From positions 1 through 64,000 of IMG/VR virus record IMGVR_UViG_3300044678_003030: a DNA stretch of 64,000 nucleotides. The stretch is one strand, 5' to 3'. Source of the DNA: a virus. The notes beneath the pieces are model-generated. The model made no database searches, was not told the DNA's origin, and saw nothing but the letters and a program-made list of their open reading frames with translations. The translations under genes were made by a program, and so were the position numbers. Of this stretch, positions 15,399-64,000 are shown in pieces. How positions within the stretch are numbered: position 1 is the stretch's first letter; each line of letters opens with the position of its first letter.

Positions 15399-15483
15399 TG
15401 CAAGCCACGTCCTCGTTGGTCTTCTGTTGCGTAGCGCTCGCCGTTGCTTTCGGATTTCTCTTTGGCCCGCTATGGATCAAGCC

Positions 15484-15915
15484 ATGAATACTGACGACAA
15501 GTTGCCTTTCTCGATGGGCTGCACCGTGACGCACACGCCGTGTTCGATCTGCCGCGCCGTCGGACGGGAGTCTATCTGTGGGCACCCACGTCCTGATGCG
15601 CCGCCAGCCCACATCCACGAGGACATCGAGTTCATCCCGGTGATCTTCGTTTCTACCCCGCTCGACCGTGTCTCCGTGTTCCGCCGGCTCTACGAAGATC
15701 ACGATGACCACTCTGCACCGGCTCGGTTGTTCTCCGCTGAAGCCATCGAGGCGGCCAAGCTCAACAGCCTTGCCGAAGCGGAGGTCCACCTCGATCGCTT
15801 CCTTCACGCGGTGAAAGATGTCGAGAACGCAGTGTTCGGAAAGCGCGTCGTCTGTGTGCGGCGGCGAGAAGATGGGCACATCACAATCCTGGTTTCGCCG
15901 GAGGTCGTGAAGTGA
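15484..15915 (+). CDS. protein with an N-terminal fragment homologous to the prohead protease
   Basis: FSMGCTVTHTPCSIC...CGH...FIPVIFVSTPLD versus protease VSMGCNVRWDVCAKC...CEH...FFDISFVWRPAD. Confidence 0.6.
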   Translation: MNTDDKLPFSMGCTVTHTPCSICRAVGRESICGHPRPDAPPAHIHEDIEFIPVIFVSTPLDRVSVFRRLYEDHDDHSAPARLFSAEAIEAAKLNSLAEAEVHLDRFLHAVKDVENAVFGKRVVCVRRREDGHITILVSPEVVK

Positions 15916-29788: not shown

Positions 29789-30811
29789 GTGGGCGTGCTA
29801 GATAACTCATTCACGCGGAAGATGCTTACGAACGACGTGAGTCGCGCGTTGTCGGAGCGTTTTCCTGAGGTCAAACTCACGCTCCAAGGTGACACTGACG
29901 CGTCTTACATGCCGAAGTTCTTCCTGAACGAAGCGCCTGAGGTTACGATCGGGTCAAAGCACTTGGACTCGCCGCATGTTTTTGCGCACGAGTACGGGCA
30001 CCACCAGTTCGATCAAACACCTATCGGTAGCGCTGTTCAACACCCTGTTTTTCGAGGGATTTCTAACTACGCGAACATCCCGTTGAGCGCTTTGGCGGGA
30101 GTTGCCGCTGCTCGTTCTGACAAGAAGTGGGCTCCTTACGTAGGGGCTCTTGCTCCGGTGTTGACTTCGTTGCCAGTTCTCGGCTCTGAGTACATGGCGA
30201 CGCGGAACGCTATGGGGCTTATGCGCGACGCTGGGGCTTCCACGCAGCAGATCGCTGACAGTAAGAGAGAGCTCGCTGGTGCGTATGGGAGTTACGCGAC
30301 ACAAGCCCTGCTGGCAGCAGCCGCGTACGCCGCGCCGTTTTTGGCGAAGAAGTACTGGCGTACAGCTCCTCCTCCCCCCAGGTGGGGAGACGAGGAGTAC
30401 ATCAGAGGAGGGGAGGAAAATACCAAGGCGGCATCGCTCTTGGATATGGCGCCGAACTGGGATAGCCCTGTGCGCGCGCGTGTGATTCAGGGAGGGGTAA
30501 CTGGCGGCGCGGCGGGGCTTCTCGCGGGCATTCCCGTAGGTCTTTTGGCTCCAAGGCTGTATGGTGGTAGCGACGACCGGCTTAGGGGTGTGTTGTCGGC
30601 AGCAGGCAGCATGGGGCTATTGGGTATGGGTTCCGGTGCGATAGCAGGCAGCGTTCTTGGTGGTTACGAAGAAGGGCTTCAATACGGGAGTCATCCCGAT
30701 AAGTACGACTATGACCCGATTGTTCAATACACCTATCCCCCGGACCCGCTCGGGGCGGTAGCCAATAGGCTCGGCGTTCGCGATGGTGAGCGTTTTCGGG
30801 GTGCTCGGTGA
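29789..30811 (+). CDS. Zn peptidase + K-x-A linker + glycine-zipper two-module protein
   Basis: FAHEYGH...SEYMAT; TKAAS linker; GGVTGGAAGLLAG zipper; lower GC3. Confidence 0.75.
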   Translation: MGVLDNSFTRKMLTNDVSRALSERFPEVKLTLQGDTDASYMPKFFLNEAPEVTIGSKHLDSPHVFAHEYGHHQFDQTPIGSAVQHPVFRGISNYANIPLSALAGVAAARSDKKWAPYVGALAPVLTSLPVLGSEYMATRNAMGLMRDAGASTQQIADSKRELAGAYGSYATQALLAAAAYAAPFLAKKYWRTAPPPPRWGDEEYIRGGEENTKAASLLDMAPNWDSPVRARVIQGGVTGGAAGLLAGIPVGLLAPRLYGGSDDRLRGVLSAAGSMGLLGMGSGAIAGSVLGGYEEGLQYGSHPDKYDYDPIVQYTYPPDPLGAVANRLGVRDGERFRGAR

Positions 30812-33800
30812 GCCACTCCCACCGCTGGTCGTCTTTCTACGTCCCCGGCGACGCCTATCGGTACTGCGCGTGCGGCGCGATCGAGACGGTCTCGCCGGAT
30901 GGCGAGCACGGGCCTGTGCCGGCCAAGGAGGAGGGATTCGTCCGTCGCCACATCGAGCGCCTGGAGAAGAGCGCGGAGGCGCTCAAGAAGACGCTTGGGC
31001 CCTTCACCTTCGAGATCGATCGGCCCGAAGGAACTACGAAGGCGTGGCCCGGTGGCAAGTCCTTTACGTACCCCGTCGACTACGGATTCTTTCCGAAGCT
31101 CGAAGGGGAGGACGGGGAGGGACTGGATGCGTTCGTGGGAGATGACCCGCACGGTCACCTGGAGTCCTTCCAGAAGCTCAAGCCGAACAAGGACGGCAAG
31201 CTCGTCGCCGACGAGACGAAGTACCTGCTCGGCGTGAACGACCGTCAACGCGAGACCATCTACAAGCTCTACGGGCGAGAGATCAACGCGCGTCGCGTGT
31301 ACGACACATGGGAGGCGGTGGAGCGGTCGTTGGCGCGGTTCGAGAAGGAGGCGTCTGAGCCGGAGGAAACTCCGGTTTGGGAGAAGGACGTTCGCGACGC
31401 CGCCGGGGTTGCGCTCGCAGGGCTTGGCGCACGAAGTCTTGCGCATGGGGCTGCGGAGGACCTGCTAGGCGCGCAGAGGTTCTACCACGGTACTGGTGAT
31501 GCAGCGGCAGCGGCGATTCGCCGTGATGGCCTTTTGGCTTCAATGGGAGGTAACCCCAACGGCAGTGCGTCTCTTTCGGGAGTCCAGTCTTACGTAAAGA
31601 ATTCAAAGGGTCATGTACACGTCGGCACGGGCTTTTTAGGTGCGCAGGCGGCTCGCGGCTACGCCTCGCTCGTGGATGCCAAGGAGCGTAATCCGCTTCT
31701 TTCCAACGAAGGCGCAATGTACGCGTACCTGCGTGGGATGGGCCCTGGGCACAAAGGCACTGTTCTTCAGGGCGCTGTCCCGTACGAGTGGCTCTCCAGC
31801 AACTTTTCACCGGACCCTGATAGCGGCGGTAGCAGCGCTGCCCTCAAGGGGCAGGTGGACATCGGAGCCTCCCACATTTCAGACGGCGCCGTAGGTCTTC
31901 GAGACCTCTACAAGAATCGAGCTCCTGACCTCCTTGGGTACGTGAAGCGCAACCCACGTCGTGTTGCGCATGGCGCCTTGATGGCCGGAGGGTCTTTGGC
32001 CGCTGTGTACGCTGCATATCGACTGGCCAAGATGATCCAGGACCGACACAGTAGCCCAGAGCAGGAGCCTGTTGTGGAAGCAAAGCTCGGAGCTGCCGAT
32101 GCCCCCTCGAATCTTCTCGGACTCGTGGGCACGCCTCAGTACTACCTGACGCGCGCCGCTGACTTCCGTCGCCGACACCCTGATCTCCGCGCTCCTGACT
32201 ACTACAACGAGTACGGCGATCGCTACGCCCACCGCTTCGAGAGCCAGACTCGTCCTCGGCTCTCTCCGGCCGGGCAGGCGTGGTTCGACAAGACCAAGCA
32301 CGGCCTTCAGTATGCGATCGAGCAGAAGCGCCTCGAAGACCCTGAAGGGTTCGACGCCCTTGAGCGTGACCCCAAGGCGTTCCACCGCTTCGCGTACGAC
32401 ACGCACGGCCCGGTGTACCTGAACTCAGGGATTCGCAAGCTGCCGCTGCGCGACCTCATGCGCGTGGCGCGCACGCCAGACCTCAAGGATGTCATCAACC
32501 GAGATGGTCTACGTCTTGTGGGGCAGGTCTTGAATCCGTTCAACAAGGCGGCCTCGGTCAAGGAGGCGCGAGTCCCTACTCATGTGAAGCAGTACCGCCG
32601 CGCGCTTCAGATGTTGGCAGAAGGGCAACACGACTTCCACGGCACCGCGAATCTTCCTGGTGTTGTACGGACCGGTCGTGTTGTTGGCGGGAAGAATGAC
32701 GCGTACCATACAGGCGGCAAAGCGTACTTTTCGCGCGGTTTTCCACTGGCTGAGTACTTTGACTACGAGACCTCGAAGTACAACGATGGAGGGTTCGCCT
32801 TCCCTCGTGTACAGATGGACAAGAACAAAGCGGAGATCATTCCGGGGACACCTGCAACCTTGCCGGTTCCCTACGTAGCTGCTTGGCACGCCCCCCTTCA
32901 ACAGGGCGCTACCGTCTTTGTGACGTCTCCCGCTGCGAAAGTGCGCGAGGCAGCAAGCGCCGCGCAACGTAAGTTCAATCTGCGCCGCGTTGACCCCGAG
33001 GCTTACGCCCTCGCCGTTGAGACCCTGAAGGGCAACGTGTCTCCTGGTGCTTCCCAGCACATACTCAAGAACCTCGAAGGTCCGTATACCCCGGTTATGC
33101 CAGCGCCTTCAATTTCCGCCTCCTCTGTTGCAACCCCTCCCGCTGCGCCCTCTGTCTATTCCATCCTCAATCGCCGCAACGCCGCGATCGCAGGCGGTAC
33201 CCTCGCCACGGCTGCCGCGCTGTACGGAGGCCACCGTTGGCTTCGTTCACGGCGTGAAAAGGAACAAGAAAAGGTCGCTGACGCAGTGGAACAAGACCCG
33301 TCCGAACAGCCGCCGAAGAAGTCCTGGCTACGTCGCAACGCGGCCCCGATTGCAGGGCTGACGACGGCAGCGGTAGTTGCACCGCTTCTCTATCGCTACC
33401 TGCGTAAGCAGCGACTGAGCAATGACCCCGCACTCCGCTCGATTCAAGAGGCATCGGGCGGCAGGTTCGGCCGCATCCTTGAAGGGCGGCAAGAGGCGAT
33501 GTCTGCGCCACGTCGTTGGCTCGACCGATTGATCTACTCAGGTGGCGGCGATGTCCACTACCAGGACAACCTCATCGAGGCGGCGCGCAAGAGTGGCAAG
33601 GTGCCGCAGGTTGAGGGGGTGCTCCTTCACAACGCGCCAGGGAAGCAGCTTGCACAGGGGGCCTCAAACCTTATCGCGAATCGTGATTCCGATGCGGTGT
33701 CGAGCATCTTTGACAACGGTAACAAGTGGCAGGAGTACAACATCTTCGAGCACTTTGCGCCGGGGTCCATGGGAAAGACCGAGAACGTTGCAGACGTTCT

Positions 33801-34818
33801 CGCTGACATGGGGCACAACCTCGGAGCTCGCAACCCGCGAGAGCGCGGACAGCAGGTCGAAGCCTTCCGTAAGGCCATGTCCAACAACGGCGCGCGTAGG
33901 CGAGACATGCTCGCGGAGCTTCAGAGTAACCTCCGTCAAAGGTTTGGGGACGGCTTCCTTCTCAAGGACGTCGACGCTGCTGCTACGGGGGGGAAGTTCC
34001 CCTCGGATCTGCACAACTTCACAGATCTTGTGAACGAGGATTCGCCTGCGGCGAAGACTCTGATCAACGCGATCAAGGATCCGCGAAGTGTGATCGCGCA
34101 GTCGAAGCTGCCGCTCGCTCAAGGATCGTGGCTCGACCGGCAGTTTGCCAAGCTCCGTGGCCTGCCATCTACGCAGGAAGTTCGTGTCCATGTGATGAAC
34201 GGTGCGGTCGCCCCGGACCTCACAGTGCCGCGCTTCTCTCCGACGATGTGGCTCACCGGACGAAAGACGATGCGCGGCGCGGACCAGTACGCGCGTGATC
34301 TGCTTACGAAGTTGCCCGAGGAGCTTCAGCGCGGGACGTATGCGATGGACGTCGCACCGCTCGTGGGTGGCGGGTACAAACTCATTGAGTCTAATCCTGG
34401 TTACCGTAGTGGTTTCTTGAGCCCCGGTAACCATCCGGTAATCGGACCTCTTCTGCACAAGCAGTTCACTGGCCAGCACAGCCAAATGGTTTCTGGCCTT
34501 GGTGCCGGCGCGGGCGCTGTTGGCGGAGGGCTTACGGCAGCGGCTGGTGCGCGGTACCTCGCCAACCGGCAGCAGCCGGAGCAAGAGTCTGAGCTTCACG
34601 GCGTGAAACAAGCCAGCGCCTTCGACGCCCTCAACTGGGTCCCCGCTCCTTTCCAGGGGCGCGTGCAGTCCCCGCAAGAAATCGTCTACGCCGCGCGCTC
34701 TACCCCTGCTCTCGCGGCGACACAGGAGAACCTTCGGCTGCTTCAGGTCGCCCAGGACCCCTACGGCACCGGGTCTCCGACGCAGGGCGTCTCTCACCAT
34801 CGACGTCATCACGGCTAG
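30808..34818 (+). CDS. 1336-aa polyvalent protein: pyrophosphatase-like, two ADP-ribosyltransferase-like, one unknown helical and one ATP-grasp module
   Basis: YPVDYGF...DGEGLDAFV; FYHGT...IRRDGL; FHGT...AYFS; FLLKD...EVRVHV...AMDV...IESNPG; modules separated by K-x-A(-like) sites. Confidence 0.8.
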   Translation: MSHSHRWSSFYVPGDAYRYCACGAIETVSPDGEHGPVPAKEEGFVRRHIERLEKSAEALKKTLGPFTFEIDRPEGTTKAWPGGKSFTYPVDYGFFPKLEGEDGEGLDAFVGDDPHGHLESFQKLKPNKDGKLVADETKYLLGVNDRQRETIYKLYGREINARRVYDTWEAVERSLARFEKEASEPEETPVWEKDVRDAAGVALAGLGARSLAHGAAEDLLGAQRFYHGTGDAAAAAIRRDGLLASMGGNPNGSASLSGVQSYVKNSKGHVHVGTGFLGAQAARGYASLVDAKERNPLLSNEGAMYAYLRGMGPGHKGTVLQGAVPYEWLSSNFSPDPDSGGSSAALKGQVDIGASHISDGAVGLRDLYKNRAPDLLGYVKRNPRRVAHGALMAGGSLAAVYAAYRLAKMIQDRHSSPEQEPVVEAKLGAADAPSNLLGLVGTPQYYLTRAADFRRRHPDLRAPDYYNEYGDRYAHRFESQTRPRLSPAGQAWFDKTKHGLQYAIEQKRLEDPEGFDALERDPKAFHRFAYDTHGPVYLNSGIRKLPLRDLMRVARTPDLKDVINRDGLRLVGQVLNPFNKAASVKEARVPTHVKQYRRALQMLAEGQHDFHGTANLPGVVRTGRVVGGKNDAYHTGGKAYFSRGFPLAEYFDYETSKYNDGGFAFPRVQMDKNKAEIIPGTPATLPVPYVAAWHAPLQQGATVFVTSPAAKVREAASAAQRKFNLRRVDPEAYALAVETLKGNVSPGASQHILKNLEGPYTPVMPAPSISASSVATPPAAPSVYSILNRRNAAIAGGTLATAAALYGGHRWLRSRREKEQEKVADAVEQDPSEQPPKKSWLRRNAAPIAGLTTAAVVAPLLYRYLRKQRLSNDPALRSIQEASGGRFGRILEGRQEAMSAPRRWLDRLIYSGGGDVHYQDNLIEAARKSGKVPQVEGVLLHNAPGKQLAQGASNLIANRDSDAVSSIFDNGNKWQEYNIFEHFAPGSMGKTENVADVLADMGHNLGARNPRERGQQVEAFRKAMSNNGARRRDMLAELQSNLRQRFGDGFLLKDVDAAATGGKFPSDLHNFTDLVNEDSPAAKTLINAIKDPRSVIAQSKLPLAQGSWLDRQFAKLRGLPSTQEVRVHVMNGAVAPDLTVPRFSPTMWLTGRKTMRGADQYARDLLTKLPEELQRGTYAMDVAPLVGGGYKLIESNPGYRSGFLSPGNHPVIGPLLHKQFTGQHSQMVSGLGAGAGAVGGGLTAAAGARYLANRQQPEQESELHGVKQASAFDALNWVPAPFQGRVQSPQEIVYAARSTPALAATQENLRLLQVAQDPYGTGSPTQGVSHHRRHHG

Positions 34819-51102: not shown

Positions 51103-52014
51103 TCAGGCGAAGACGAGGTGCTGGACCGACTCGAAGTTCCCGATGCCGATGCCCGGCGCCGAGTACGAGTCGAAGGAGATGACGTCGCGCTTCTGCTCGA
51201 TGAACATCGTCGCGTCCTGGAGCAGGTAGAAGCGGCCGAGGAACTCGTTCGGGGCGAGCACCCAGCACTCCTTCTTGTCGTAGACGTGCACCTTGGTGGT
51301 CACGACCGCAGGGACGCCGTAGAGGTGGTCCTCGCCGTCGATGCCCTCGCGGTAGTGCTTCGACGCGATGTCGTTGCCGAGCGCGGTCGCAGGGAGGTCC
51401 ATCGCTTCACGGAAGAGTCGCTTGGTCAGCAGGAGCTTGCCGATCGGGCGGCGGCGGTCGTCCATCGCCTGGAACGAGCGCTTGAACGCGTTCGAGGTGA
51501 ACGACGACGCGCCGGTGCGCTGGATGGTCGAGTTCCGGTTCACGATCGAGAGGAGCGTGCGCCGGAAGTAGTGGTCCTCCTGGTCGCCCATCTTCTTGAC
51601 CGAGTTGTCGGCGATGACCTTGCGGATATCCATCCGGTAGGTCATGAGCTCCCACTTCGTCTTCTTGTACGTCGGCGTGGTGATCTTGCCGAAGTAGATC
51701 TCGTAGCGGTCGCCCTTGATCCAGTGGGCCTCGGGGGTGCCGGTGAGCTCGACCCACGTCGCGTAGGTCTCGTCGTCGCCCGGCTCCTTCTCCACGATCT
51801 TCATCGGGCGGTCGGTCGTGGAGACGCGGTCGATCTCGTCGTCCGCGAGACCGATCGGCTCCATGACCTCACGGACCGCCGCCTCCTGGAGGATCAGGTT
51901 GCGGATGAAGGAGTTCGAGGCGTCCTCGGCCTCCTTCGTCTGGCCGCTGTCCAGCATGGAAAGGAAGCGCGAGTTGTAGACGCGCGTCTGCACCTGAGTC
52001 GTTTCCGTCTTCAT
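51103..52014 (-). CDS. major capsid protein (HK97 fold)
   Basis: 303 aa, very strong codon bias, RBS GGAG; DRPMKIVEKEP...ELMTYRMDIR...FLGRFYLLQDATMFI...GIGIGN; follows the decoration gene. Confidence 0.85.
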   Translation of the reverse strand: MKTETTQVQTRVYNSRFLSMLDSGQTKEAEDASNSFIRNLILQEAAVREVMEPIGLADDEIDRVSTTDRPMKIVEKEPGDDETYATWVELTGTPEAHWIKGDRYEIYFGKITTPTYKKTKWELMTYRMDIRKVIADNSVKKMGDQEDHYFRRTLLSIVNRNSTIQRTGASSFTSNAFKRSFQAMDDRRRPIGKLLLTKRLFREAMDLPATALGNDIASKHYREGIDGEDHLYGVPAVVTTKVHVYDKKECWVLAPNEFLGRFYLLQDATMFIEQKRDVISFDSYSAPGIGIGNFESVQHLVFA

Positions 52015-52068: not shown

Positions 52069-52581
52069 TCAGGTCGACTGCGGCATGATCACGTCGAGCG
52101 CGCCGTTCGCACGGAGCGCGCGAGGCCCCACGTACGCGATGTGCTTGATGTTGTCGTTGGCCAGCAGCTTCGGCGCGAGGTTGCCATCGACCGAGGGCGA
52201 CGGCACGAGGGGCTGCCCTGCCGCGTACGAGGCCGCGTCGATCTTCGTGGTCTCGAATCGCCCGCCGAGGAAGGCGAAGACGGAGCCGTCGAAGGAGAAG
52301 TCGTTGTTGCCGGAGAACACGCAGAAGTAGAGCTTCGGCATGTCGGTCCCGATGACGCAGTCGGTCGCCTTGACCCAGTTGCCCTCGGCGTTCATCTCGA
52401 TGATGAGTCCGCCCTCCCAGTCACCCTGGACCGGAGTTCCGTTGTCGCCGGGGACGCCGACGCCGTCACCAGCCGCGATGGCCTCGGCGACGTTCTGGGG
52501 CTGAACGTTCAGCCAGATGGCGCACATCGCGCCGGTCTGCGGCTCGTTGGTCTTGAGGTTGAACTTGGACGAGAACTTCAT
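52069..52581 (-). CDS. capsid decoration/cement protein
   Basis: Directly upstream of the MCP; YAAGQPL motif; RBS AAGGA. Confidence 0.7.
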   Translation of the reverse strand: MKFSSKFNLKTNEPQTGAMCAIWLNVQPQNVAEAIAAGDGVGVPGDNGTPVQGDWEGGLIIEMNAEGNWVKATDCVIGTDMPKLYFCVFSGNNDFSFDGSVFAFLGGRFETTKIDAASYAAGQPLVPSPSVDGNLAPKLLANDNIKHIAYVGPRALRANGALDVIMPQST

Positions 52582-52617: not shown

Positions 52618-53031
52618 TCAGCGCCGGCTGTTGATGAGGTCTTCACCGAAGTTGTCGAACGCCTGCTTGTAGCGCTCCGCGCGCGTGCCCTGCGGGGCCT
52701 CACGCCGAGCCGACGGGTCAGAGCGTTCACTCGGTGAACCGAGGTCGTTCACGCGAAGGGAAGCCGCAGCGAGCTTCTCGACGGCGGCGCGCGCAGCGGG
52801 GTTCTCGGCCACTTCGTCAGGGAGGTCTTCACCCGTGGCGCGGCGGTAGGCGCTGCCGAAGGACTCGTCTTCTGCCTTCTTCACAGGCATCGCCTGTGGC
52901 TGCGCAGCTTGAACCGCTTTGGGAGCGGGAACTTCCTTCGCCTTCTTCGGCAGTTCCTTCATCGCCTTGGCCGTCATGACATCGGTCAGGGCTTCCAGGG
53001 CGCTTGCGATCTTTTCGTGGAGGTCGTTCAT
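52618..53031 (-). CDS. K-x-A head/scaffold protein
   Basis: EKIAS, KKAE, EKLAA; position typical of a scaffold. Confidence 0.6.
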   Translation of the reverse strand: MNDLHEKIASALEALTDVMTAKAMKELPKKAKEVPAPKAVQAAQPQAMPVKKAEDESFGSAYRRATGEDLPDEVAENPAARAAVEKLAAASLRVNDLGSPSERSDPSARREAPQGTRAERYKQAFDNFGEDLINSRR

Positions 53032-53390
53032 CGGGGCACTCGCTTCAAAAGGCTAAGCGCCCCGAGGGCGCGTACAGCGGCAGCACGCTTCTCGCGCAAG
53101 TCGAAGGCCCGATCGATGCCGGCGACGCGCACGGAGTCGGCGAGAGCACGGACCTTGCCGACAGCAGACCCGTCACAGGACGCGATCTTCTCGACGAGCT
53201 CTGCGCGACGAGCGGAGAGCGCGGCGTAGTCAGCCGTTTTCACCGCGTGAACGTCAGCGATCGTGAACGGTAGGTCCCCCGCTACACGCACTGCCTGTGA
53301 GAGCGCGCCCAAGGCCCGAGCGTACGGGTCGTCGTGTGCGCGCTTCTCCGCTCCATCGAGGTCACGAAGCGTGTCAGCCAATGTACCCAT
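53028..53390 (-). CDS. K-x-A head protein
   Basis: EKRAH, VKTAD, EKIAS, EKRAA. Confidence 0.6.
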   Translation of the reverse strand: MGTLADTLRDLDGAEKRAHDDPYARALGALSQAVRVAGDLPFTIADVHAVKTADYAALSARRAELVEKIASCDGSAVGKVRALADSVRVAGIDRAFDLREKRAAAVRALGALSLLKRVPR

Positions 53391-53736
53391 TCGGTACCCC
53401 CATCGACTGCGGTTGATCGTCCTTGGTGAGGTGGTGATAGAGCGCATACGCCACAGGACCCACCACGGCCCCTGTGTACCCGCGTGTCCCACCTTCAGGC
53501 GTACTCATGGAGTTCCCGACGATACCGCCCATCGCCCCGGCCAGGATCGACTCCATGTCCTTCCCTTGAGGGGCGATGACTGAGCCGATACCGGCGCCCG
53601 CCAGCGCGGGGCCGTGGATCTTGAGCTGCTGACCGAACGCCTCCGGGGAGAACGCGGCTGACTTGCTCAGCTCGTCGAAGGCAGCTCCCTTCAGCCCGGC
53701 GTGAAGCCGGACCAGCTCGGCGTCCGTGTGGCGCAT
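53374..53736 (-). CDS. K-x-A glycine-zipper protein
   Basis: MRHTDAEL...DELSKSAA...GAGIG...GAMGGIVG. Confidence 0.6.
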   Translation of the reverse strand: MRHTDAELVRLHAGLKGAAFDELSKSAAFSPEAFGQQLKIHGPALAGAGIGSVIAPQGKDMESILAGAMGGIVGNSMSTPEGGTRGYTGAVVGPVAYALYHHLTKDDQPQSMGVPNGYIG

Positions 53737-54296
53737 CAGCGGCCGATCGCCTGCTTGAGCGATTCGTAGCCGTTGAGGTAGTGCCCGGCGCCGAGCTCCT
53801 GGTACTGGCGCAGCTCGTTGTTCGCAGCCGTCTTGTCCTGCCCGCTCGCGGCGCGCTGCTCGTTGTAGCCACGCTCGACCTCGCGCAGGAAGCCCGCAGG
53901 GTCGGCCTGCGCCAGCTTGGCGAGCTCGATCGTACGGGGGTCGATGCCAGCGGCGGCTTCCTTCGCCATCTTCTCGGCGGCTTCGCCCGCCGACGTGAAG
54001 GTCGCCAGGGCCTGCTCCGCGAACGCAGCCCCGGCGAGCTTGCCTCGGCGGAACGCGCGCTCGTCGTTGGCCGCCTCGATCGCCTGGGCCTCCTTGGTCA
54101 GCACGTCGCTGACGGTGGTCGCGCTCGCCTCCTTGACGGACCCGAGCCCCGACACGACTTCGCGCATCGACTGGTCGAGCGTCGAGGCTGCCGGAGCGGA
54201 GGGCGCAGGCGAGGCGGTACCGGGCTGCCCGGCCGTCTTCGCCTCGGCGGTCTTCGTGGTCTGGTTCAGGTTTCCGATCAGGCTCTTGATCTGCAT
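53736..54296 (-). CDS. K-x-A head/core protein
   Basis: TKTAE, AKTAG, VKEAS, TKEAQ, GKLAG, EKMAKEAA, AKLAQ, DKTAA. Confidence 0.7.
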   Translation of the reverse strand: MQIKSLIGNLNQTTKTAEAKTAGQPGTASPAPSAPAASTLDQSMREVVSGLGSVKEASATTVSDVLTKEAQAIEAANDERAFRRGKLAGAAFAEQALATFTSAGEAAEKMAKEAAAGIDPRTIELAKLAQADPAGFLREVERGYNEQRAASGQDKTAANNELRQYQELGAGHYLNGYESLKQAIGR

Positions 54297-54313
54297 TACG
54301 TTCCTCTTGGAGG

Positions 54314-56182
54314 TCAGGACAGGAGTAGCGCACCAAGCGCGCCGCTGAAGTCGTCGAGCGATAGGGTAGGCGGTTCGGTCGAGTCTTCTGCCTGCTTCTC
54401 CCAGCGCTCGAAGTGATCATCGGCGAGATCTGAGATGCGGGTGCGGCGTCGCATCTCTGCGGCCATGTTCCCGCTGTGGCATTGCGCCGGCAGCCGCTCG
54501 GCGTAGTCCGAGGCAAACTTGGCCAGGACGGAGGCCAGCTTGAACTCGGTTCCCCCGGAGACGCGGACGCCTTGGTCGGTCAGGTACGCCGGGTTCCGGT
54601 ACGGGCGAGCGGCGCGTAGAACGTGAGGGGCGGTCACTGCGCCAAGTCCGATTCCACCGAGCGTAGAAGCCACGGGGTTCACGCCGCCGAGCCCGTAGAG
54701 CCCGAGCCCGTAGAGGGCTGACAACCCGACCGTCGTACCTACGAGACCCTTCATGTCTTCGTGGTTGGCGCGCATGGCGGCGCCACGGGTCGTCGTGTAG
54801 CGGTGCCCCGTATTCGGGTCCGTCATCGATAGGAGATCGGTCCTCGGCGGTTCTTGCGCAGAGGTCAGATAGCCGGGTCCGAGAGGAGGGTCGACCGTCT
54901 GGTTCACGCGCTGCTTGAGCCAGTCGTCCATCGAGGCGAGCTTGGCTTCGACCTCTGCGGACGGGCGCCTCGGGTCGATGGTCACATAGGCCCCGAGCTC
55001 TTCGGCGAGCTTCGGGTATCGCCCCATGATCGAGAGCACGGACGGCTGGAGCGTGACCATCCTGTCGAGCAAACGAGCAGAAGGGATCACGCCTGCGGTC
55101 TTGCGCAGGAAGACGCGCGCGAACTCGCTCGCCGTGAGAGACGCGTTCTTGGACGCGAGCGTCGAGAGCAGGGCGTCGAACGGCAAGCCAGCGAGGTCAG
55201 CGACTTGCGCCTCAGTCGCGCTAACCGGAGCCTTGAGGGGCACGGTCTGCCGGTACTGGCGGATCGCCTGGATGTCGGGCGCTGTACGGACAGCCTCGAT
55301 GTCTCCCGCGATCTCCTTCTGGATGTCGGAGACCTTGTTTACGGCCGCTCGCTTGGCTTCGTAGTCGGCAACCTTTTCACCGAGTGAAGCTCCTGTACGG
55401 ATCACGTACGCATCCTCGGCGACCTTCTTGAGCATGAACCCTGTGCGGTCTGCCGGGCGCCACACGAAGGAGATGTCGAAGAAGCTCGGTGATGGGTTGA
55501 GCGCGCAGTTCCTGATCCCCGTCGCCGGATCGATCTGGCGCATCGCCGAGCGGAGGTGCTCGCAGTAGTCCTTGCGGGTCGGGGCTCGGTGTCCGCACTT
55601 GGCGCACACGTCCCAACGGACGTTGCAGCCCATCGACACAGCCGGGAATTCACCTGCGTTGATCTTGCCGACGAGCTCAGGGTCGAGGCGATTCCTGATC
55701 TCCAGCAGGAGCTCGCTCCGGTGCATGGAGCTGTTCCAGAACGCCTTCTCGATTCGACCGAGCGACTTGCGGGGGTCCTTGTTGACGTGGTGCTTGTAGA
55801 TCCCGCCACGTGTCTCGAAGGTCTTGTAGTGCTGGGTGACAACTTCGTCCGGGGAGATCCAACCTTCGAGGTTGCGCGGTTGACACCCTGGATGGCCACA
55901 GGTTGCCCGCTCTCCCACGCGGTAGGTGCGCTCCGGGAAGGCGTCGCCGTTGCGGTTGTCATCGTAGTACTCGTAGGCGCCGAACGCGTTGACGAGGACG
56001 ATCGTGCATCCTTCGCGAGGGGTGACCGTCTTGATGTAGTCGAACGCCTCAGACGCGGTCTTTTCGGACGAACCCGGACGTTCGGTGTACCAACGGCCCT
56101 TCTCAGAACGAGCGATGACGCGCAGCGTCGGTTCGCCGGTCTTGGGGAAGTAGTCGTCGAGCTCGATGATTTTGGTGAACAT
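54314..56182 (-). CDS. prohead maturation protease (with zinc ribbon and C-terminal extensions)
   Basis: NRNGDAF, YKHHVN, SLGRIE, VSMGC (catalytic Ser), CAKC...CEH, FFDISFV.RPAD. Confidence 0.85.
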   Translation of the reverse strand: MFTKIIELDDYFPKTGEPTLRVIARSEKGRWYTERPGSSEKTASEAFDYIKTVTPREGCTIVLVNAFGAYEYYDDNRNGDAFPERTYRVGERATCGHPGCQPRNLEGWISPDEVVTQHYKTFETRGGIYKHHVNKDPRKSLGRIEKAFWNSSMHRSELLLEIRNRLDPELVGKINAGEFPAVSMGCNVRWDVCAKCGHRAPTRKDYCEHLRSAMRQIDPATGIRNCALNPSPSFFDISFVWRPADRTGFMLKKVAEDAYVIRTGASLGEKVADYEAKRAAVNKVSDIQKEIAGDIEAVRTAPDIQAIRQYRQTVPLKAPVSATEAQVADLAGLPFDALLSTLASKNASLTASEFARVFLRKTAGVIPSARLLDRMVTLQPSVLSIMGRYPKLAEELGAYVTIDPRRPSAEVEAKLASMDDWLKQRVNQTVDPPLGPGYLTSAQEPPRTDLLSMTDPNTGHRYTTTRGAAMRANHEDMKGLVGTTVGLSALYGLGLYGLGGVNPVASTLGGIGLGAVTAPHVLRAARPYRNPAYLTDQGVRVSGGTEFKLASVLAKFASDYAERLPAQCHSGNMAAEMRRRTRISDLADDHFERWEKQAEDSTEPPTLSLDDFSGALGALLLS

Positions 56183-57606
56183 CAGAAGACCGGCGCCGAG
56201 TACGCCTTGACGCGGTCAGAGAGCTGGTCGACGTCTTGCGCAGTGAGCTGCCCCTTGCCCCATCCGAGCATGTCGAGCGGTAGGTCCTTGTTCCCGGCGT
56301 TGAAGTGGTCCATCAGGCGTTGACGGTTGCCAGGGTCGCTGAAGATCTTGCTTGCGGGGGACAAGCTGCCAAGGTCTTCAGCCGCCCGGCTGAGCAGGTC
56401 GTACTGCCGCTGTGCCTGCCGTGTCTTGGACAGGGCCTGAGCCGCCTCCAGCGTCCGCTGGTCCATGAGCTCCTTGACGACTTGCCCACCGACCGCGCCG
56501 AGGGGCATACCCAGGAGCCCACCCATCGCAGCGCCGCGCAGCCGGTTGTCCTTGTCGTCCCACGCGCCGATGCCCGCGCCTCCGACCGCACCGATTCCCG
56601 CTCCGATGACACGGGGGTCGGTGTAGAAAGAGGCGGGGATGCCTGCGGTCTTCGGCTGAGCTTGTGCCGTCTTGAGCGGCCACATCTCGCGAAAGCTCTC
56701 CAGGTCTTCATCAGAGACCCGATCTCGGGGGTCACGGAGTGACGCCGCGAGGCGGCGATAACGTTCTGCGTCTCCCCCTTCCAGGCCGCCGAAGTAGCTG
56801 TCTTGGATATCGGGATGCCGCAACATCACGGTTTCGGGGTCGATCGTTTCATGGAGCGTTGCCCCTGGAAGATGTGCTTGAAGCTGCGCGAGGTCGAACG
56901 GAACGGGGGGCGCGGGCGGCGGCGCGGGCGGCGCCTTCTTGCCCCTGAACCAGTCGAGCATCCCTGCGGTCTTCTCCGCCTCGCGGGTGAGGTAGCAGAG
57001 GTCGTCGATCGCTGCCTCGGCCGAGAGCGTGGCGAGCTTCTCGGCCTCTTGCTCGGTGACCTCTCCCTTCGCGCGCAGATCGGCGATCTTGGCGTCGACG
57101 AGGTAGTTGCTCGCGAAGCTGCGCGCAGCCTCTTCTCGCTCTTCACGGGACGAAGCGGTCTTGGTGCCGGTGCGCTCGGTCTCGCTCCAAACACGCAGCG
57201 CTTCACCAGCAAGCCATTGCACGGGGTCGTTTGTACGCGCTGCGGCGATCTTCATCCGCTCCCACAGGCCCCGCTGCTCAGCGGCGACGGTCGTGCGGTA
57301 GCCCACTGAGGCGGTCTTCTCCTGTGCGCCCAGAAGAACTTTCACGGCGTGAAAGTCTGGCGTGAAGCTCTCGGCTTCCGCGAGCTTCGAGTCACCGCAC
57401 AGTGACCGCATGTCGTCGAACCCGGCTGCGAGCGCAGCCTCCTTGGTGATGTCTCCACTGATTGTCTCGCCGAGGTAGCGAGCCACGCTCGGGAGGTCCC
57501 ATGAGTCCGGGGCGTTGACGTCTCCCGTGTGACGAAGGTACTCCGTCGCGAACTTGGGGAAGCCGAAGACACGAATGGCCTCTCCGGCCTTGCGGTAGGG
57601 GTGCAT
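56182..57606 (-). CDS. K-x-A head protein with a C-terminal glycine zipper
   Basis: About 11 K-x-A sites; GAGIGAVGGAGIG. Confidence 0.7.
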   Translation of the reverse strand: MHPYRKAGEAIRVFGFPKFATEYLRHTGDVNAPDSWDLPSVARYLGETISGDITKEAALAAGFDDMRSLCGDSKLAEAESFTPDFHAVKVLLGAQEKTASVGYRTTVAAEQRGLWERMKIAAARTNDPVQWLAGEALRVWSETERTGTKTASSREEREEAARSFASNYLVDAKIADLRAKGEVTEQEAEKLATLSAEAAIDDLCYLTREAEKTAGMLDWFRGKKAPPAPPPAPPVPFDLAQLQAHLPGATLHETIDPETVMLRHPDIQDSYFGGLEGGDAERYRRLAASLRDPRDRVSDEDLESFREMWPLKTAQAQPKTAGIPASFYTDPRVIGAGIGAVGGAGIGAWDDKDNRLRGAAMGGLLGMPLGAVGGQVVKELMDQRTLEAAQALSKTRQAQRQYDLLSRAAEDLGSLSPASKIFSDPGNRQRLMDHFNAGNKDLPLDMLGWGKGQLTAQDVDQLSDRVKAYSAPVF

Positions 57607-58232
57607 TACTGGCCTCCGATTTCGCCGCGCCCTTGGCGCACAGTCTTCTCGATGTCGGCGAGGGACTTGGCGGTTGCGAAGTCGAGCTGGCCGCCGATCG
57701 TGGCTCCCTGGTTGAGGAAGTTCTGAGTGACCAGCGGGTCCATCGCGAGCGAGGGGGCGTAGGTCTTGAACGACCCGTACAGGCGCCGAATCATCTCAGG
57801 GTTCTCTCGGTGGATTCTGGCGAGCTCAGGGTCCATACCCAGGACCTCGTCAAACACCTTGCGCTGCTTGGGCTCGGTGTAGAGCTTCTTCTTGAGCACC
57901 GACTGAAGAGCGTTGAACGGGCGCTTGATGCCGATGTCGGCGACCGCATTGGCGAGCGCGCCTGTTGCGACGTCCTGGAACTTCGGAGCAGCGGCAGCAA
58001 ACGTGAGAGGAGAACCCTCGCTCACGTCCGCCAGCTTGCGGGTTGCAAACGCCTCGTGGCTCTGCTTGACGGTCAACTTGGGCAGCGCCGCTGTCATGTC
58101 GTGTCGCCTTGCGTTTGAGAGATCGAGCATTCGAGCCTCTTGCTCATCTTGCACCTTGCCGCTGCGCACGACCGCCGCAGCGGCTGTCGCAGCCAGCGCT
58201 GCGGGCACGAGTCGGTTGGTGGTCGTTGCCAT
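57606..58232 (-). CDS. head-associated protein
   Basis: Coupled ORF; RKLAD; APSLAMDP. Confidence 0.65.
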   Translation of the reverse strand: MATTTNRLVPAALAATAAAAVVRSGKVQDEQEARMLDLSNARRHDMTAALPKLTVKQSHEAFATRKLADVSEGSPLTFAAAAPKFQDVATGALANAVADIGIKRPFNALQSVLKKKLYTEPKQRKVFDEVLGMDPELARIHRENPEMIRRLYGSFKTYAPSLAMDPLVTQNFLNQGATIGGQLDFATAKSLADIEKTVRQGRGEIGGQ

Positions 58233-59083
58233 CAGGACCTGCACCACACATCGAACTCTTGCTTGAGCTTGTCACGCTCGGCGCAGAGCGACTCGTAGTG
58301 GCTTCGACCCTCTTCGTGCTCGACACGCGCCTTGGTCGCGACCTTGAGCAGAGAGGTCATCGTATTCGGCTTGCCGTCGGGGATTCGCTCGATGAGCGCT
58401 GCGACTTTTTCCTGCGGCAGATCAATCGCGCTGTGGCACGCCCGAGTGAGGGCGACGTTGAGGTCAGGGAGGGAGTCCCCGCCGAGCACCGCGAGCGCGT
58501 TCTTGCAGAAGCCGTCGAGGTCGCGGTTCAACGGCCTGAGGTGGAAGGAGACGCGGTCGACAGCATCGGTCCAGCGCTGTTCGAGCGAGCCGAGCTTGAT
58601 CTTGAGCTCGTGAGCAGCCTTCTCGGCCTTGTGGTAGCGGATGTCGAGCGGGATCTCTGCGGGGATGTAGCGAGCGGCGCGACGCGCGTCCTCTTCGTAG
58701 GACGCGGTCTTGATCGACGCCGACACGACCACATCTTCACGCAGCCGCGCCATCTCGTCTGGCAGGTCTGGATAGGAGTGGGAGTCCGACGCGGTCTTGG
58801 TCGCGGCGTCGTCGAAGAGCCGCCCGATGACGACCACTTCATCGGCGACAGGGAACGCAACGTTCTTGTCGCCGCCTTGAATCGACGCGAACTTCGACTC
58901 GAAGGTGTGCACGTTCACGGCCCGGCAGAGCCGGCGAACTTGCTCCTCGTTGAGGCTTTCGTCACGAGCGGTCTTGGTGACCAGCTCATTGAGGTCTGCG
59001 CCGTTCTGCCCTTGCCCGGCTTCGTAGGCCGAAGCGAGCTCGGCAGCCTTCGCATCGAACAGCGAGTTCGTCCACGTTGCCAT
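58232..59083 (-). CDS. K-x-A head/core protein
   Basis: TKTAR, SKFAS, TKTAS, IKTAS, EKAAH, EKVAA, LKVAT. Confidence 0.7.
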   Translation of the reverse strand: MATWTNSLFDAKAAELASAYEAGQGQNGADLNELVTKTARDESLNEEQVRRLCRAVNVHTFESKFASIQGGDKNVAFPVADEVVVIGRLFDDAATKTASDSHSYPDLPDEMARLREDVVVSASIKTASYEEDARRAARYIPAEIPLDIRYHKAEKAAHELKIKLGSLEQRWTDAVDRVSFHLRPLNRDLDGFCKNALAVLGGDSLPDLNVALTRACHSAIDLPQEKVAALIERIPDGKPNTMTSLLKVATKARVEHEEGRSHYESLCAERDKLKQEFDVWCRS

Positions 59084-59094
59084 ACGAGCAAAGC

Positions 59095-59799
59095 CTAGTC
59101 CTTGAGACCGGCGATCTCGTTGATGTTGACGCTGGCCTGCTCGGGCGTCTTTGTCTCGTCGACGAGGTGCAAGGCCAGTTTGATCGCGTGCGCAGCGTTG
59201 TCGCCATGGCTCGCGCTCTTCTCGTTCACGAGGGCGGCGGCGCGCAATAGCTCGGGGGCGAGCCGCAATGCGGCTTGTGCCTTGGTGGTTTCAATGTCCA
59301 GCCCTCGGTTGTCGAGGAAGCGGACGTAGAGGTCACCGAGGACAGCGCGCATGACCTCTTTGGGGTCAACAGGCTTGCGGTCGCCCACGCGAAACTTGTC
59401 CGCGAGGAATGTGGGTCCTTGTTGCGTAGCGCTGAGGTAGTACTGCCTCTGGTCATCAGTGCAGTTGACTGATCGTGCGTACGCGTAGACGTCGAGCGCG
59501 TGCCGGAACACGGAGACGTCAAAGAAGAGGTGCCGATAAACATCCGTCACGACTTCCGGTAGGTCCAGGGCGTCACGCAGGACCGCGTTGCTCGCCTTGC
59601 CCAGGAGCAGCGCATCGACGATGTGCCGGTACTCTGGCGATACGTAGATGAGGTAGGCGTCCTCGATGTGAGCGATCAGCGACGTGTCGCCGGCCGTTTT
59701 CACGAGGTGAAAAAGGGCGCTTTCCCTGGGATCGGTGCTCTCACATACGGGTGAGGAGAGCACCGATTGGGCGCGATGATCAGGCGATCGCCGGGGCAT
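59095..59799 (-). CDS. conserved hypothetical protein of the head module
   Basis: YRHLFFDVSVF motif; VKTAG, EKSAS. Confidence 0.65.
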   Translation of the reverse strand: MPRRSPDHRAQSVLSSPVCESTDPRESALFHLVKTAGDTSLIAHIEDAYLIYVSPEYRHIVDALLLGKASNAVLRDALDLPEVVTDVYRHLFFDVSVFRHALDVYAYARSVNCTDDQRQYYLSATQQGPTFLADKFRVGDRKPVDPKEVMRAVLGDLYVRFLDNRGLDIETTKAQAALRLAPELLRAAALVNEKSASHGDNAAHAIKLALHLVDETKTPEQASVNINEIAGLKD

Positions 59800-59803
59800 C
59801 GGC

Positions 59804-62605
<2,802 letters not shown>

Positions 62606-62633
62606 GCCGTGAACTTGGTGCGCGGAGGCTTGA

Positions 62634-64000
62634 TCAGCCCGTGGCGAGGAGCTCGCGCAGGCGAGAGTCGCGGTTGGACGGGGGAGCCGCGAGGATCTGC
62701 TGGAGTGCAGCGACCTTCTGCGACTCGGTCCAGCCGACCGGGAGCGCGCTGCCGTAGGCGGCGGCGACCTTGCTGAAGGACGCCATGTAGCTCGCGTCCG
62801 CAGCCTTCTTGTCTTCGCGCGCGACGACGTTGTCGGCGTTGACGAAGGGCACGCCGGCGCGCGGAGCCTGGACGACAGTCTCCGGGGTCGACGGTGCGCT
62901 CACGGGAGCCTTGCCCTGCGCGTTCTCGGCGTAGCCTGCGGGGCGCTGCTGCTTCTCCACCGCCGCGAGCTCGTCCGTCTTTGCGGCGTCGGCGACCGTG
63001 TTGGGGCCGTGCGGGGTGAGCGAGCCAGCTCCGGCGAGCTTGAGCTTCGAGGCGAAGGTCTGCGGGTTGCGACGCGCAGCAGCGGTCTTCGCGAACTCGG
63101 TCTTGACGAGCCACCGCGTCTCAGCCGAGGCGCACTTGGTGAGCGCATCGCGGTTGTCGGCGAACACACTGCGCAGGAGCGCGCTGGCGTCGGCGGCGGT
63201 CTTCGCGACGTGCGCGACGTGCGCGAGCACCTCCTGCCCCTGCGGGTGGTCCATGAGCCCGGCGACGGCAGCCTGGGACTCATCGTCCTCGGGGGCGAGG
63301 GACTTGAGCTTCTCCCAGATCATCTGGAGCAGCGCGGTCTGCTCGTCAGCGGGCGCCCCTTCGGCGGGCATGGGCGGCTCCGCGTCAGTCAGACCTTCGG
63401 CCGGGTTGCCGTCCCCGAACTCCGTGTCCTCACCACCGGCCAGCTTGTTGCCGAGCGCCGCAGCGGCGAGCTTGGTCGCCTGCCGCTCCGCCTTGTAGGC
63501 GTTGTAGTTGACGCTCGCGACCTTGGCGTACTCGCGAGCGGTGCTCGCGACAGCCGGGACCTGCTTGGCGATCTGCTCGTCGGTCGCGATCTTGATCAGC
63601 CGATCCGCGAGGAAGCCGATCACACCGGCCTGCGGCGCCTTGCCCATGGACGCAACCTTGACGAGCGCGTCCTGGTCCTCCTTCTTGAGCGTCGCCATCG
63701 CGGCCTTGACGTGCGCGTCGTTGAGCGCCGCGAACACGGGCGTCATGAACCCAGCAGCGGCGACCTTGGCCACGCGCTCCTCCACACCGGCCTGCTTGAG
63801 CCCCACGTAGAGGCGCTCGGCGGCGGCCTTGGCGCTCTGGTCAGTGAGCGAGTTCGCGATCATCGGCGAGATCTCTGGCCGGGCCGGGTCAGCGATTTCC
63901 TTGGGGCCGGTGATGCCAGGAGCAGGGAGAAGCGTGTCGGCGCCCTGCGGCTGCTCGGCGTAGCCGACGGGGCGTTGCGAGATCTCCAGGGCCGCCATCG
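62634..64000 (-). CDS. Ala-rich K-x-A head/core protein (5' end outside the window)
   Basis: More than 12 K-[VILTC]-A sites; internal repeat QRPVGYAE/QRPAGYAE. Confidence 0.75.
   Translation of the reverse strand, partial: MAALEISQRPVGYAEQPQGADTLLPAPGITGPKEIADPARPEISPMIANSLTDQSAKAAAERLYVGLKQAGVEERVAKVAAAGFMTPVFAALNDAHVKAAMATLKKEDQDALVKVASMGKAPQAGVIGFLADRLIKIATDEQIAKQVPAVASTAREYAKVASVNYNAYKAERQATKLAAAALGNKLAGGEDTEFGDGNPAEGLTDAEPPMPAEGAPADEQTALLQMIWEKLKSLAPEDDESQAAVAGLMDHPQGQEVLAHVAHVAKTAADASALLRSVFADNRDALTKCASAETRWLVKTEFAKTAAARRNPQTFASKLKLAGAGSLTPHGPNTVADAAKTDELAAVEKQQRPAGYAENAQGKAPVSAPSTPETVVQAPRAGVPFVNADNVVAREDKKAADASYMASFSKVAAAYGSALPVGWTESQKVAALQQILAAPPSNRDSRLRELLATG

Follow-up and report, generated by a model that had tools for sequence, protein, structure and literature searches.

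The prohead protease gp21 of phage T4 follows the rule (L/I)-x-E and cuts gp22, gp67, and gp68; the motif of phiKZ gp175 is S/A/G-x-E. Herpesvirus assemblins, which are made as precursors with release (R) and maturational (M) sites (pUL26 of herpes simplex virus, HSV, and pseudorabies virus, PrV; pUL80a of human cytomegalovirus, HCMV), have the specificity (V/L/I)-x-Ala|Ser. To our knowledge, the phage prohead proteases of this fold with known specificity, i.e., those of T4, phiKZ, 201phi2-1, and SPN3US, all cut after Glu. Here we analyze the first 64,000 nucleotides (referred to below as the window) of the IMG/VR virus record IMGVR_UViG_3300044678_003030, in which the proteins of the head module are saturated with the tripeptide Lys-x-Ala (K-x-A, or K.A when counted as a pair). 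Its distribution among the head genes suggests that K-x-A is probably the central part of the motif recognized by the capsid-maturation serine protease that the phage itself encodes at 54314-56182. No Lys-x-Ala rule is reported for a phage prohead protease in the literature covered, which leaves aside the mass-spectrometry work on phage G. Among published cases, gp245 of SPN3US cuts behind A-x-E and prefers Ser at P1', cleaves itself, and has substrates that include ejected proteins (PMC10052503); the R and M sites of PrV assemblin are YLQA-T and VQA-S, and the R-site of herpesvirus pUL26 frees assemblin from the scaffold part (PMC4498786).

The virus record comprises 93,956 bp and is estimated to be 53% complete, which implies a genome of about 180 kb. 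The window has a GC content of 60-68%, and from ~39.8 kb up to its end the genes lie on the minus strand and are transcribed from high to low coordinates; the open reading frames (ORFs) of the original prediction, a reading of the sequence made without database searches, are reproduced by a filter on GC content at third codon positions (GC3). The nearest cultured relatives are Salmonella phage Arash (OQ632216, 180.8 kb) and Vibrio phages D69, D181, and D148. Identity to this group is 33-35% for the major capsid protein (MCP; 35% to Arash gp226) and 33-34% for the protease (33% to that of Arash). In tblastn searches the protease matches Arash gp222, Vibrio phage D69, phage G gp19, and the prohead proteases annotated in Rhodococcus phage E3 and Gordonia phage Stormageddon; phage G gp19 counts among its more distant relatives, together with prohead proteases from Rhodococcus phage E3, Gordonia phages, and cluster-C mycobacteriophages. 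Statistics for the lineage are drawn from 80 related IMG/VR loci fetched with the protease, of which 45 are non-redundant and were used for regional comparison.

The first line of evidence is the enrichment of the motif in the window, assessed by 500 shuffles of each protein that keep its composition, with the head module represented by 9 ORFs (3536 residues) and the rest by 60 ORFs (13849 residues). The strict motif of the original prediction, K[TVILEAS]A[ASDE], occurs 35 times in the head module against 4.7 expected, a count reached in 0 of the 500 shuffles; KTA is found 18 times (1.5 expected) and the loose motif K-x-A 74 times (26.3 expected). The other 60 ORFs are at expectation for the strict motif (11 vs 7.0), KTA (2 vs 3.1), and K.A (48 vs 51.9). 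Lys is followed by Ala at +2 in 74 of 181 cases (41%) in the head module and in 48 of 500 (9.6%) elsewhere (Fisher p 1e-18). Six ORFs are significant one by one, namely those of 137, 186, 622, 474, 283, and 585 residues, the last through its 454-residue part within the window; K.A is not significant in the per-protein shuffles of the 213-, 234-, and 933-residue ORFs. The signal sits at the protein level and not at the DNA level: 48 distinct 9-mers lie behind the sites, Ala codon usage is as in the remaining protein, and matches to AAR-NNN-GCN number 78 in frame versus 5 and 2 in the other two frames.

The saturation of the head module reported in the original prediction is therefore real, being far beyond composition in the per-protein shuffles. 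All the pentapeptides it quoted are found, in the protease as EKTAS (41), KKVAE (253), EKVAD (270), RKTAG (361), AKLAS (414), FKLAS (548), AKFAS (555), and EKQAE (596), and in MCP as TKEAE at residue 27. Its counts per ORF fit the loose motif, with 17 sites in the ORF starting at 62634, 9 in 58232-59083, 12 in 56182-57606, 10 in 53736-54296, 5 in 52618-53031, and 11 in the protease; its own strict pattern yields fewer (10, 4, 6, 4, 2, and 6, respectively). The first of these ORFs is larger than the window revealed, being 585 residues long and extending beyond the window end. The near-absence of the motif from tail proteins and mature capsid was seen correctly, as the ORFs at 39.8-51.1 kb and the mature MCP have 0-4 sites each, near or below expectation. 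The suggestion of about ten core-type genes forming a large inner core goes too far: five ORFs other than the protease are enriched singly, and three hold between one and six sites, no more densely than chance.

The second line of evidence comes from a scan of all 400 residue pairs of the form a-x-b, scored against composition. In the head module of the window K.A takes rank 1 (75 vs 28.7, z 8.7), and the rest of the window contains nothing comparable. The top gapped pairs of the head module include no x.E pair, and the site in MCP reads K-E-A, so the contrast originally drawn with the x-x-E specificity of T4 and phiKZ-like phages is upheld. The same scan applied as a control to T4 gp67, gp68, gp21, gp22, gp23, and gp24 puts I.E at rank 1, L.E at rank 2-4, and K.A at rank 11-25; since it returns the experimentally known gp21 rule, such a statistic recovers the specificity of a prohead protease from sequence alone. 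Across the 80 related loci K.A is first in most and among the top four in nearly all, with L.K often just below. When the head module of the 45 non-redundant loci is taken to begin 6.5 kb upstream of the protease and to end where MCP starts, it contains 2039 K.A against 1024 expected, compared with 389 vs 360 for MCP and downstream genes and 217 vs 191 for far-upstream ORFs; in 40 of 40 loci it ranks above the downstream genes.

Arash and Vibrio phages D69, D181, and D148 have a head module syntenic with that of the window, the same K-x-A enrichment, and the same MCP site. In Arash (53% GC) and D69 the pattern is explicitly [LMIV]-x-K-x-A-[SAG], as in TIEKTAS, PMEKAAS, ELVKEAS, and DLEKAAA. 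This cultured group differs from the window in the middle residue, which is E/Q/S/A/V there versus Thr here (KTA in 18 of 74 sites), and the window has an extra gene, that of the 474-residue protein, before the protease. In phage G, K.A is mildly enriched (27 vs 15.8) and A.E is not (12 vs 15.5); an A-x-E rule for phage G was not confirmed.

The third line of evidence is the conservation of the sites and their flanks. In a logo built from the 45 non-redundant loci, position -2 is enriched 2-3.5-fold for M/L/F/I (M 3.5-fold, L 2.7-fold, F 2.4-fold) and position -1 for Glu (3.6-fold); Lys, T/V/I/L, and Ala follow, then S/E/A at +3, where Ser, directly after Ala, is the most enriched (2.9-fold), and E/D/A at +4. 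The originally proposed core stands, within a motif longer than stated, and the best reading of its fuller form from these flanks is [M/L/F/I]-[E/x]-K-[T/V/I/L/x]-A-[S/A/E/G]. A position weight matrix (PWM) built from the flanks of the relatives' K.A sites alone, with the window left out, gives the head-module K.A of the window a mean score of 1.15 and other K.A a mean of -1.23 (Mann-Whitney p 4e-11). In alignments of seven proteins with up to eight close relatives, the motif Lys is kept in 48% of cells vs 30% for other Lys and the motif Ala in 55% vs 39% for other Ala, whereas the middle residue is kept in 25% vs 35% for all other residues. The 283-residue protein presents the clearest case: in its seven close orthologues the motif Lys is kept in 74% of cells vs 11% for other Lys, and in a wider alignment the middle residue varies among T/V/A/I/Q/L/H/Y/F, one column reading KTA, KVA, KAA, and KIA across sequences 25-40% identical. 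Lys and Ala are fixed by position and the middle residue is free.

The enzyme that probably reads this motif matches the PHROG head maturation protease (E 1.2e-5) and is the only head-module protein that PHROGs name; it has no Pfam match, and a Pfam search with ten head-module proteins returned no family beyond one weak glycine-zipper match. Its catalytic domain lies approximately at residues 45-252, in which S183 (the serine of the VSMGC motif in the original prediction), H131, and H132 are invariant in an N-terminal domain alignment of 25 diverse relatives. The AlphaFold2 model has a confident core at residues 55-256, with a predicted local distance difference test score (pLDDT) of ~90. VIA-align matches this model best to T4 gp21 (5jbl_A; Z 9.6, root-mean-square deviation 2.9 Å over 128 of 165 residues) and next to the herpesvirus proteases of varicella-zoster virus (1vzv, Z 9.5), PrV (8.6), HSV-2 (7.4), and HCMV, Kaposi's sarcoma-associated herpesvirus, and Epstein-Barr virus (~6.5-7), with unrelated MCE-domain rows at Z 6-6.7. 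The predicted fold of the catalytic domain is thus the gp21/assemblin β-barrel. Foldseek alone gave weak rows only (E 0.05-0.2) for the model, and the sequence profile of the protease found nothing relevant among PDB sequences.

None of the 11 K.A sites of the protease falls within residues 45-252, and two of them stand at the borders of the domain. K41-T-A43, the predicted N-terminal self-processing site, lies in a low-pLDDT stretch (29-42), scores 4.3 on the relatives-only PWM, and is aligned with K-T-A or K-T-S in distant relatives. K253-V-A255, the predicted release site, falls in an alignment column with the pattern xLxK[VLIA]A[S/E/Q] in almost every one of the 25 relatives, and pLDDT is low at residues 257-268 after it; in phage G gp19 the sequence is LEKVAS, at 248, and phage G also has an LLKIAS site. 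The last K-x-A of the protease is 24 residues from the C-terminus, and in about half of the relatives it is ~20-45 residues from it. An M-site-like role suggested by this position was considered and set aside, the position being indistinguishable from the expectation given by site density.

Two further observations concern this protein family. The catalytic domain contains an inserted cluster of C193, C196, C207, and H210 (Cys-x2-Cys...Cys-x2-His) that is conserved across the clade, in some lineages has more residues inserted between its Cys pairs, and aligns to a gap in T4 gp21. The cluster looks like a zinc-binding knuckle; it accounts for the C.H pairs that repeatedly come up as enriched in the pair scan. 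Phage G gp19 also gives a second, weak tblastn match (E 6e-4) on the plus strand at 15412-15669, in an ORF without a PHROG match, which may be a degenerate protease-like paralogue or noise.

The fourth line of evidence is the site in MCP. The protein has a single K-x-A, at residues 27-29 (51928-51936), and most of 49 distinct orthologues have one at the same N-terminal place; in Arash gp226 it is K27-E-A29, within LVKEAG, for which a mature N-terminus at Gly30 is predicted. In MCP sequences the N-terminal 40 residues contain 42 K.A vs 10 expected, and the mature part 22 vs 63.7 (0.35-fold, i.e., depleted). The predicted mature MCP would have ~274 residues. In one MCP sub-lineage (loci L026, L030, L034, L041, L044, and L079) the K-x-A site is replaced by Q-L-[T/S]-E-A-G, and in several of these loci T.E is among the enriched pairs, which may reflect either a variant of the site or a change of specificity.

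If the motif is a cleavage site, Ala|X is the bond that we somewhat favor, because the spacing and the small residue after Ala mirror the A-x-E|S of SPN3US and the (V/L/I)-x-A|S of herpesviruses, and because an invariant Ala at P2' would be odd for this fold. The SPN3US and PrV sites show that known enzymes of the fold likewise use a two-residue spacing with a small residue behind it. A cut after Lys, in the form [L/M/I/F]-x-K|x-A, would instead be a T4-like P3/P1 rule with the charge reversed from Glu to Lys and Ala as a P2' determinant. The strongly hydrophobic -2 position, which reproduces the spacing of the T4 (L/I)-x-E| rule seen in the control, is what makes this reading attractive, as is the great regularity of L/M-x-K in Arash and D69. 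In the window, however, -2 is much less regularly hydrophobic, with Lys and Ala fixed; a near-invariant P2' Ala is unusual for this fold, and the enrichment of Ser/Ala/Gly directly after Ala fits the P1' preference of the SPN3US and herpesvirus A|S sites. We consider a cut after Lys unlikely.

The proposed maturation scheme is as follows. The protease would be co-assembled into the prohead, where it would free its own catalytic domain by cuts at K41-T-A and K253-V-A and remove ~29 residues from MCP at K27-E-A. The site-dense proteins (those of 186, 137, 283, 474, and 585 residues, together with the C-terminal 370 residues of the protease) would be cut into small pieces, and proteins with one or few sites would be trimmed only. 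Since all 12 sites of the 474-residue protein are in its first 321 residues, a C-terminal fragment of ~150 residues would remain, and this fragment, with its glycine zipper, is a possible mature product. The original assignment of K-x-A to this protease gains from the fact that the motif is lineage-wide, conserved in position, and confined to the head module, brackets the catalytic domain, and marks the N-terminus of MCP, as known cleavage motifs do; the cutting itself and its place after Ala are what we infer from these patterns.

Compared with the described systems, T4 gp21 is the best structural match, and the protease gene of the window likewise stands among scaffold-like genes upstream of MCP, where a motif with two-residue spacing saturates neighboring small proteins and marks the N-terminus of MCP. 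The differences are the motif itself (K-x-A vs (L/I)-x-E), the lack of significant sequence similarity, and the size of the window enzyme, whose 622 residues include a 370-residue C-terminal extension and a Cys/His insertion without counterpart in the gp21 alignment. With herpesviruses the window shares a protease domain that is N-terminal in a longer protein, a site directly after the domain like the R-site, and a putative P1 Ala followed by a small residue; the last K-x-A near the C-terminus recalls the M-site, although not beyond site density. Unlike herpesviruses, the window has Lys rather than Val/Leu/Ile two residues before Ala, and dozens of sites over many separate proteins rather than two or three. 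As in phiKZ-like phages, many head proteins would be processed at a short x-spaced motif with Ser favored at P1'; the difference is that the cut there is A-x-E| and no x.E pair is enriched in the window.

Several points weigh against the assignment of K-x-A to the protease. The paper on Arash mentions neither a protease nor cleavage, and it gives no peptide-level data (PMC10585845). The Arash homologues of the dense-site proteins were found in virion preparations at 80-100% coverage (PMC10585845), which is not as complete destruction predicts; the preparation listed 116 proteins, metabolic enzymes included (PMC10585845), and is therefore no clean evidence for or against destruction of scaffold-like proteins. 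Alignment of the protease profile to T4 gp21 by hhalign is not significant (E 0.16). It nevertheless pairs the VSMG serine with T4 VSSRG and the KHH histidines with T4 NHP, which makes sense. Support for the equivalence of catalytic residues to T4 gp21 thus comes from the fold match and from an alignment that is plausible but weak; the third residue of the Ser-His-His triad, a His, was not identified in the window protease. About half of the head-module K.A sites are expected from composition, so that individual sites are uncertain, and the cells and counts of the conservation analysis are not phylogenetically independent. Finally, the actinophages E3 (L085) and LinStu (L086), with a related protease family, lack K.A enrichment; this makes the K-x-A rule clade-specific and means that the scan does not return K.A in every head module. 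These two phages show a mild R.A enrichment (z 2.6-2.8) and K-L-A-S/H ~45 residues into MCP.

The high coverage of the Arash homologues in virion preparations is also what one would expect if K-x-A were a non-proteolytic assembly signal, either a short docking or packing motif of scaffold and internal proteins (for the inner capsid surface, the portal, or each other) or the repeat of an Ala/Lys-rich helix, and the carriers are Ala-rich (13-22%) and probably helical. In our opinion, this explanation is improbable. The motif is found in unrelated proteins, at the N-terminus of MCP, and in disordered segments on either side of the protease domain, the mature MCP avoids it, and helical periodicity predicts i+3/i+4 coupling rather than i+2; moreover, the same kind of signal in T4 is a cleavage motif. 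Still less can be said for cleavage of the motif by a protease other than the gp21-like enzyme, such as a host enzyme or a candidate phage HExxH peptidase: candidate peptidase-like ORFs do occur elsewhere in the window, but conservation of the sites on both sides of the gp21-like catalytic domain extends over the whole clade, phage G included, and in 40 of 40 loci it is the genes around this protease that hold the enrichment, which makes such a division of labor very improbable. That Ala-rich and moderately Lys-rich proteins yield K-x-A unaided is hardly credible, given that 0 of 500 composition-keeping shuffles reach the observed counts, the signal is in frame only, and it recurs in lineages of very different GC content.

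The genes of the head module and the features discussed are collected in Table 1.

Table 1. Coordinates of head-module genes, predicted cleavage sites, and other features of the locus (window numbering; genes in order of transcription, followed by parts of proteins and other features)
Feature	Coordinates	Strand	Observations
585-residue ORF	62634-64391 of the full record; 3' part 62634-64000 in the window	-	Densest carrier: 21 K.A vs 7.2 expected, Poisson P 2e-5
933-residue protein	59804-62605	-	N-terminus weakly like Arash gp218; 6 K.A at residues 214-567, not enriched
234-residue protein	59095-59799	-	Arash gp219-like; 3 K.A including VKTAG at residue 34 (K34 PWM 4.4), not enriched
283-residue protein	58232-59083	-	9 K.A vs 2.2 expected; clearest positional conservation
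213-residue protein	57606-58247	-	Single K.A (K71-L-A), not enriched; this Lys kept in 7 of 7 close orthologues
474-residue protein	56182-57606	-	12 K.A vs 3.2 expected, all within residues 18-321
Prohead protease, 622 residues	54314-56182	-	11 K.A; catalytic domain and long C-terminal region
186-residue Ala-rich protein	53736-54296	-	Directly downstream of the protease; 10 K.A vs 2.3 expected, p<0.002
120-residue ORF	53028-53390	-	4 K.A (EKRAH, VKTAD, EKIAS, EKRAA); GC3 0.70, not picked by the GC3 filter; gene status less certain
137-residue protein	52618-53031	-	5 K.A vs 2.0 expected, p 0.03; best site HEKIAS, PWM 6.0
170-residue protein	52069-52581	-	Between the K-x-A-rich genes and MCP; no K.A
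MCP, 303 residues	51103-52014	-	35% identical to annotated Arash MCP gp226
Site K41-T-A43 of the protease	56054-56062	-	Predicted N-terminal self-processing site just before the catalytic domain
Catalytic domain of the protease	55427-56050	-	
Cys/His cluster of the protease	55553-55606	-	Candidate zinc-binding knuckle
Site K253-V-A255 of the protease	55418-55426	-	Predicted release site, immediately behind the last strand of the domain
Glycine-zipper/transmembrane-like segment, protease C-terminal region	~54650-54800	-	GLYGLGGV...GGIGLGAV
Glycine-zipper/transmembrane-like segment, 474-residue protein	56482-56610	-	GAGIGAVGGAGIG...
Low-complexity tract of the 933-residue protein	~60206-60595	-	Met/Gly/Gln-rich
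Portal gene	74768-76498 of the full record	-	Phage G gp14-like, E 4e-12; ~12 kb past the window end
Arash gp216-like gene	65353-67176 of the full record		
1336-residue ORF	30808-34818	+	Outside the head module
Second match of phage G gp19	15412-15669; ORF 15427-15915	+	Possible degenerate paralogue or noise

The protease gene sits between portal and MCP beside scaffold-like genes, with MCP 2.3 kb downstream, in the same order as in Arash, D69, and phage G. RNA-polymerase subunit genes stand between the portal and the remaining head module. The 933-residue ORF was considered as a portal and ruled out, as the match to the phage G portal gp14 lies outside the window, at 75101-75976 of the full record. 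This ORF has no K-x-A beyond residue 567, and downstream of its sites lies a long Met/Gly/Gln-rich repeat tract of low complexity with units like GGMDPSMMGQMGGM, encoded by imperfect tandem DNA repeats of 9-51 bp. In the 585-residue ORF many sites score high on the relatives-only PWM.

Among the small genes, that of the 186-residue protein deserves attention. Its KTA, KLA, and KMA columns are conserved in three orthologues, and by analogy of position (that of T4 gp22 relative to gp21) it would be the best scaffold candidate. The 170-residue protein, by contrast with its K-x-A-rich neighbors, has no K.A site, nor has any of its seven orthologues (eight sequences in all), and it is probably not a substrate. 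By its position, which is that of phage G gp26, it may act as a decoration protein, but neither phage G gp26 nor PHROGs gave a sequence match. The ~150 C-terminal residues of the 474-residue protein have no K.A and hold a glycine-zipper segment, with a weak match to Gly-zipper_YMGG at 333-375. The glycine-zipper/transmembrane-like segments of this protein and of the C-terminal region of the protease, of which similar ones occur in Arash gp221, may be membrane-active parts of ejected proteins. Outside the head module, three of the ten best-scoring K-x-A sites on the PWM belong to the 1336-residue ORF (residues 54, 180, and 1267).

What appears new here is the specificity suggested by the sequence patterns; the fold of the protease and the logic of maturation were already known. 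The motif provides a sequence-only annotation of hypothetical head-module proteins in ~80 uncultured genomes and three cultured groups, sorting them into scaffold-like proteins with dense sites, trimmed cargo with a single N-terminal site, and non-substrates, and it points to proteins encoded elsewhere in the genome that are candidates for capsid delivery. The cultured phages Arash (Salmonella) and D69 (Vibrio) allow a direct test of the hypothesis. A Lys-x-Ala rule shared by the clade would add a second class of specificity in phages, either convergent on the Ala|Ser rule of herpesvirus assemblins or inherited with it. More tentatively, it is conceivable, though we would not call it likely, that in a large, mostly uncultured Arash-like lineage (~180 kb) a protease of the gp21/assemblin fold cuts after Ala, as herpesviruses do, rather than after Glu, and is part of a protease-scaffold fusion with release- and maturation-like cuts. 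Were this so, the K-x-A code could be read across the genome to tell which proteins enter the capsid and are diced there, among them polyproteins and RNA-polymerase inserts that lie beyond the head module, and the lineage would be a functional intermediate between phage and herpesvirus capsid maturation.

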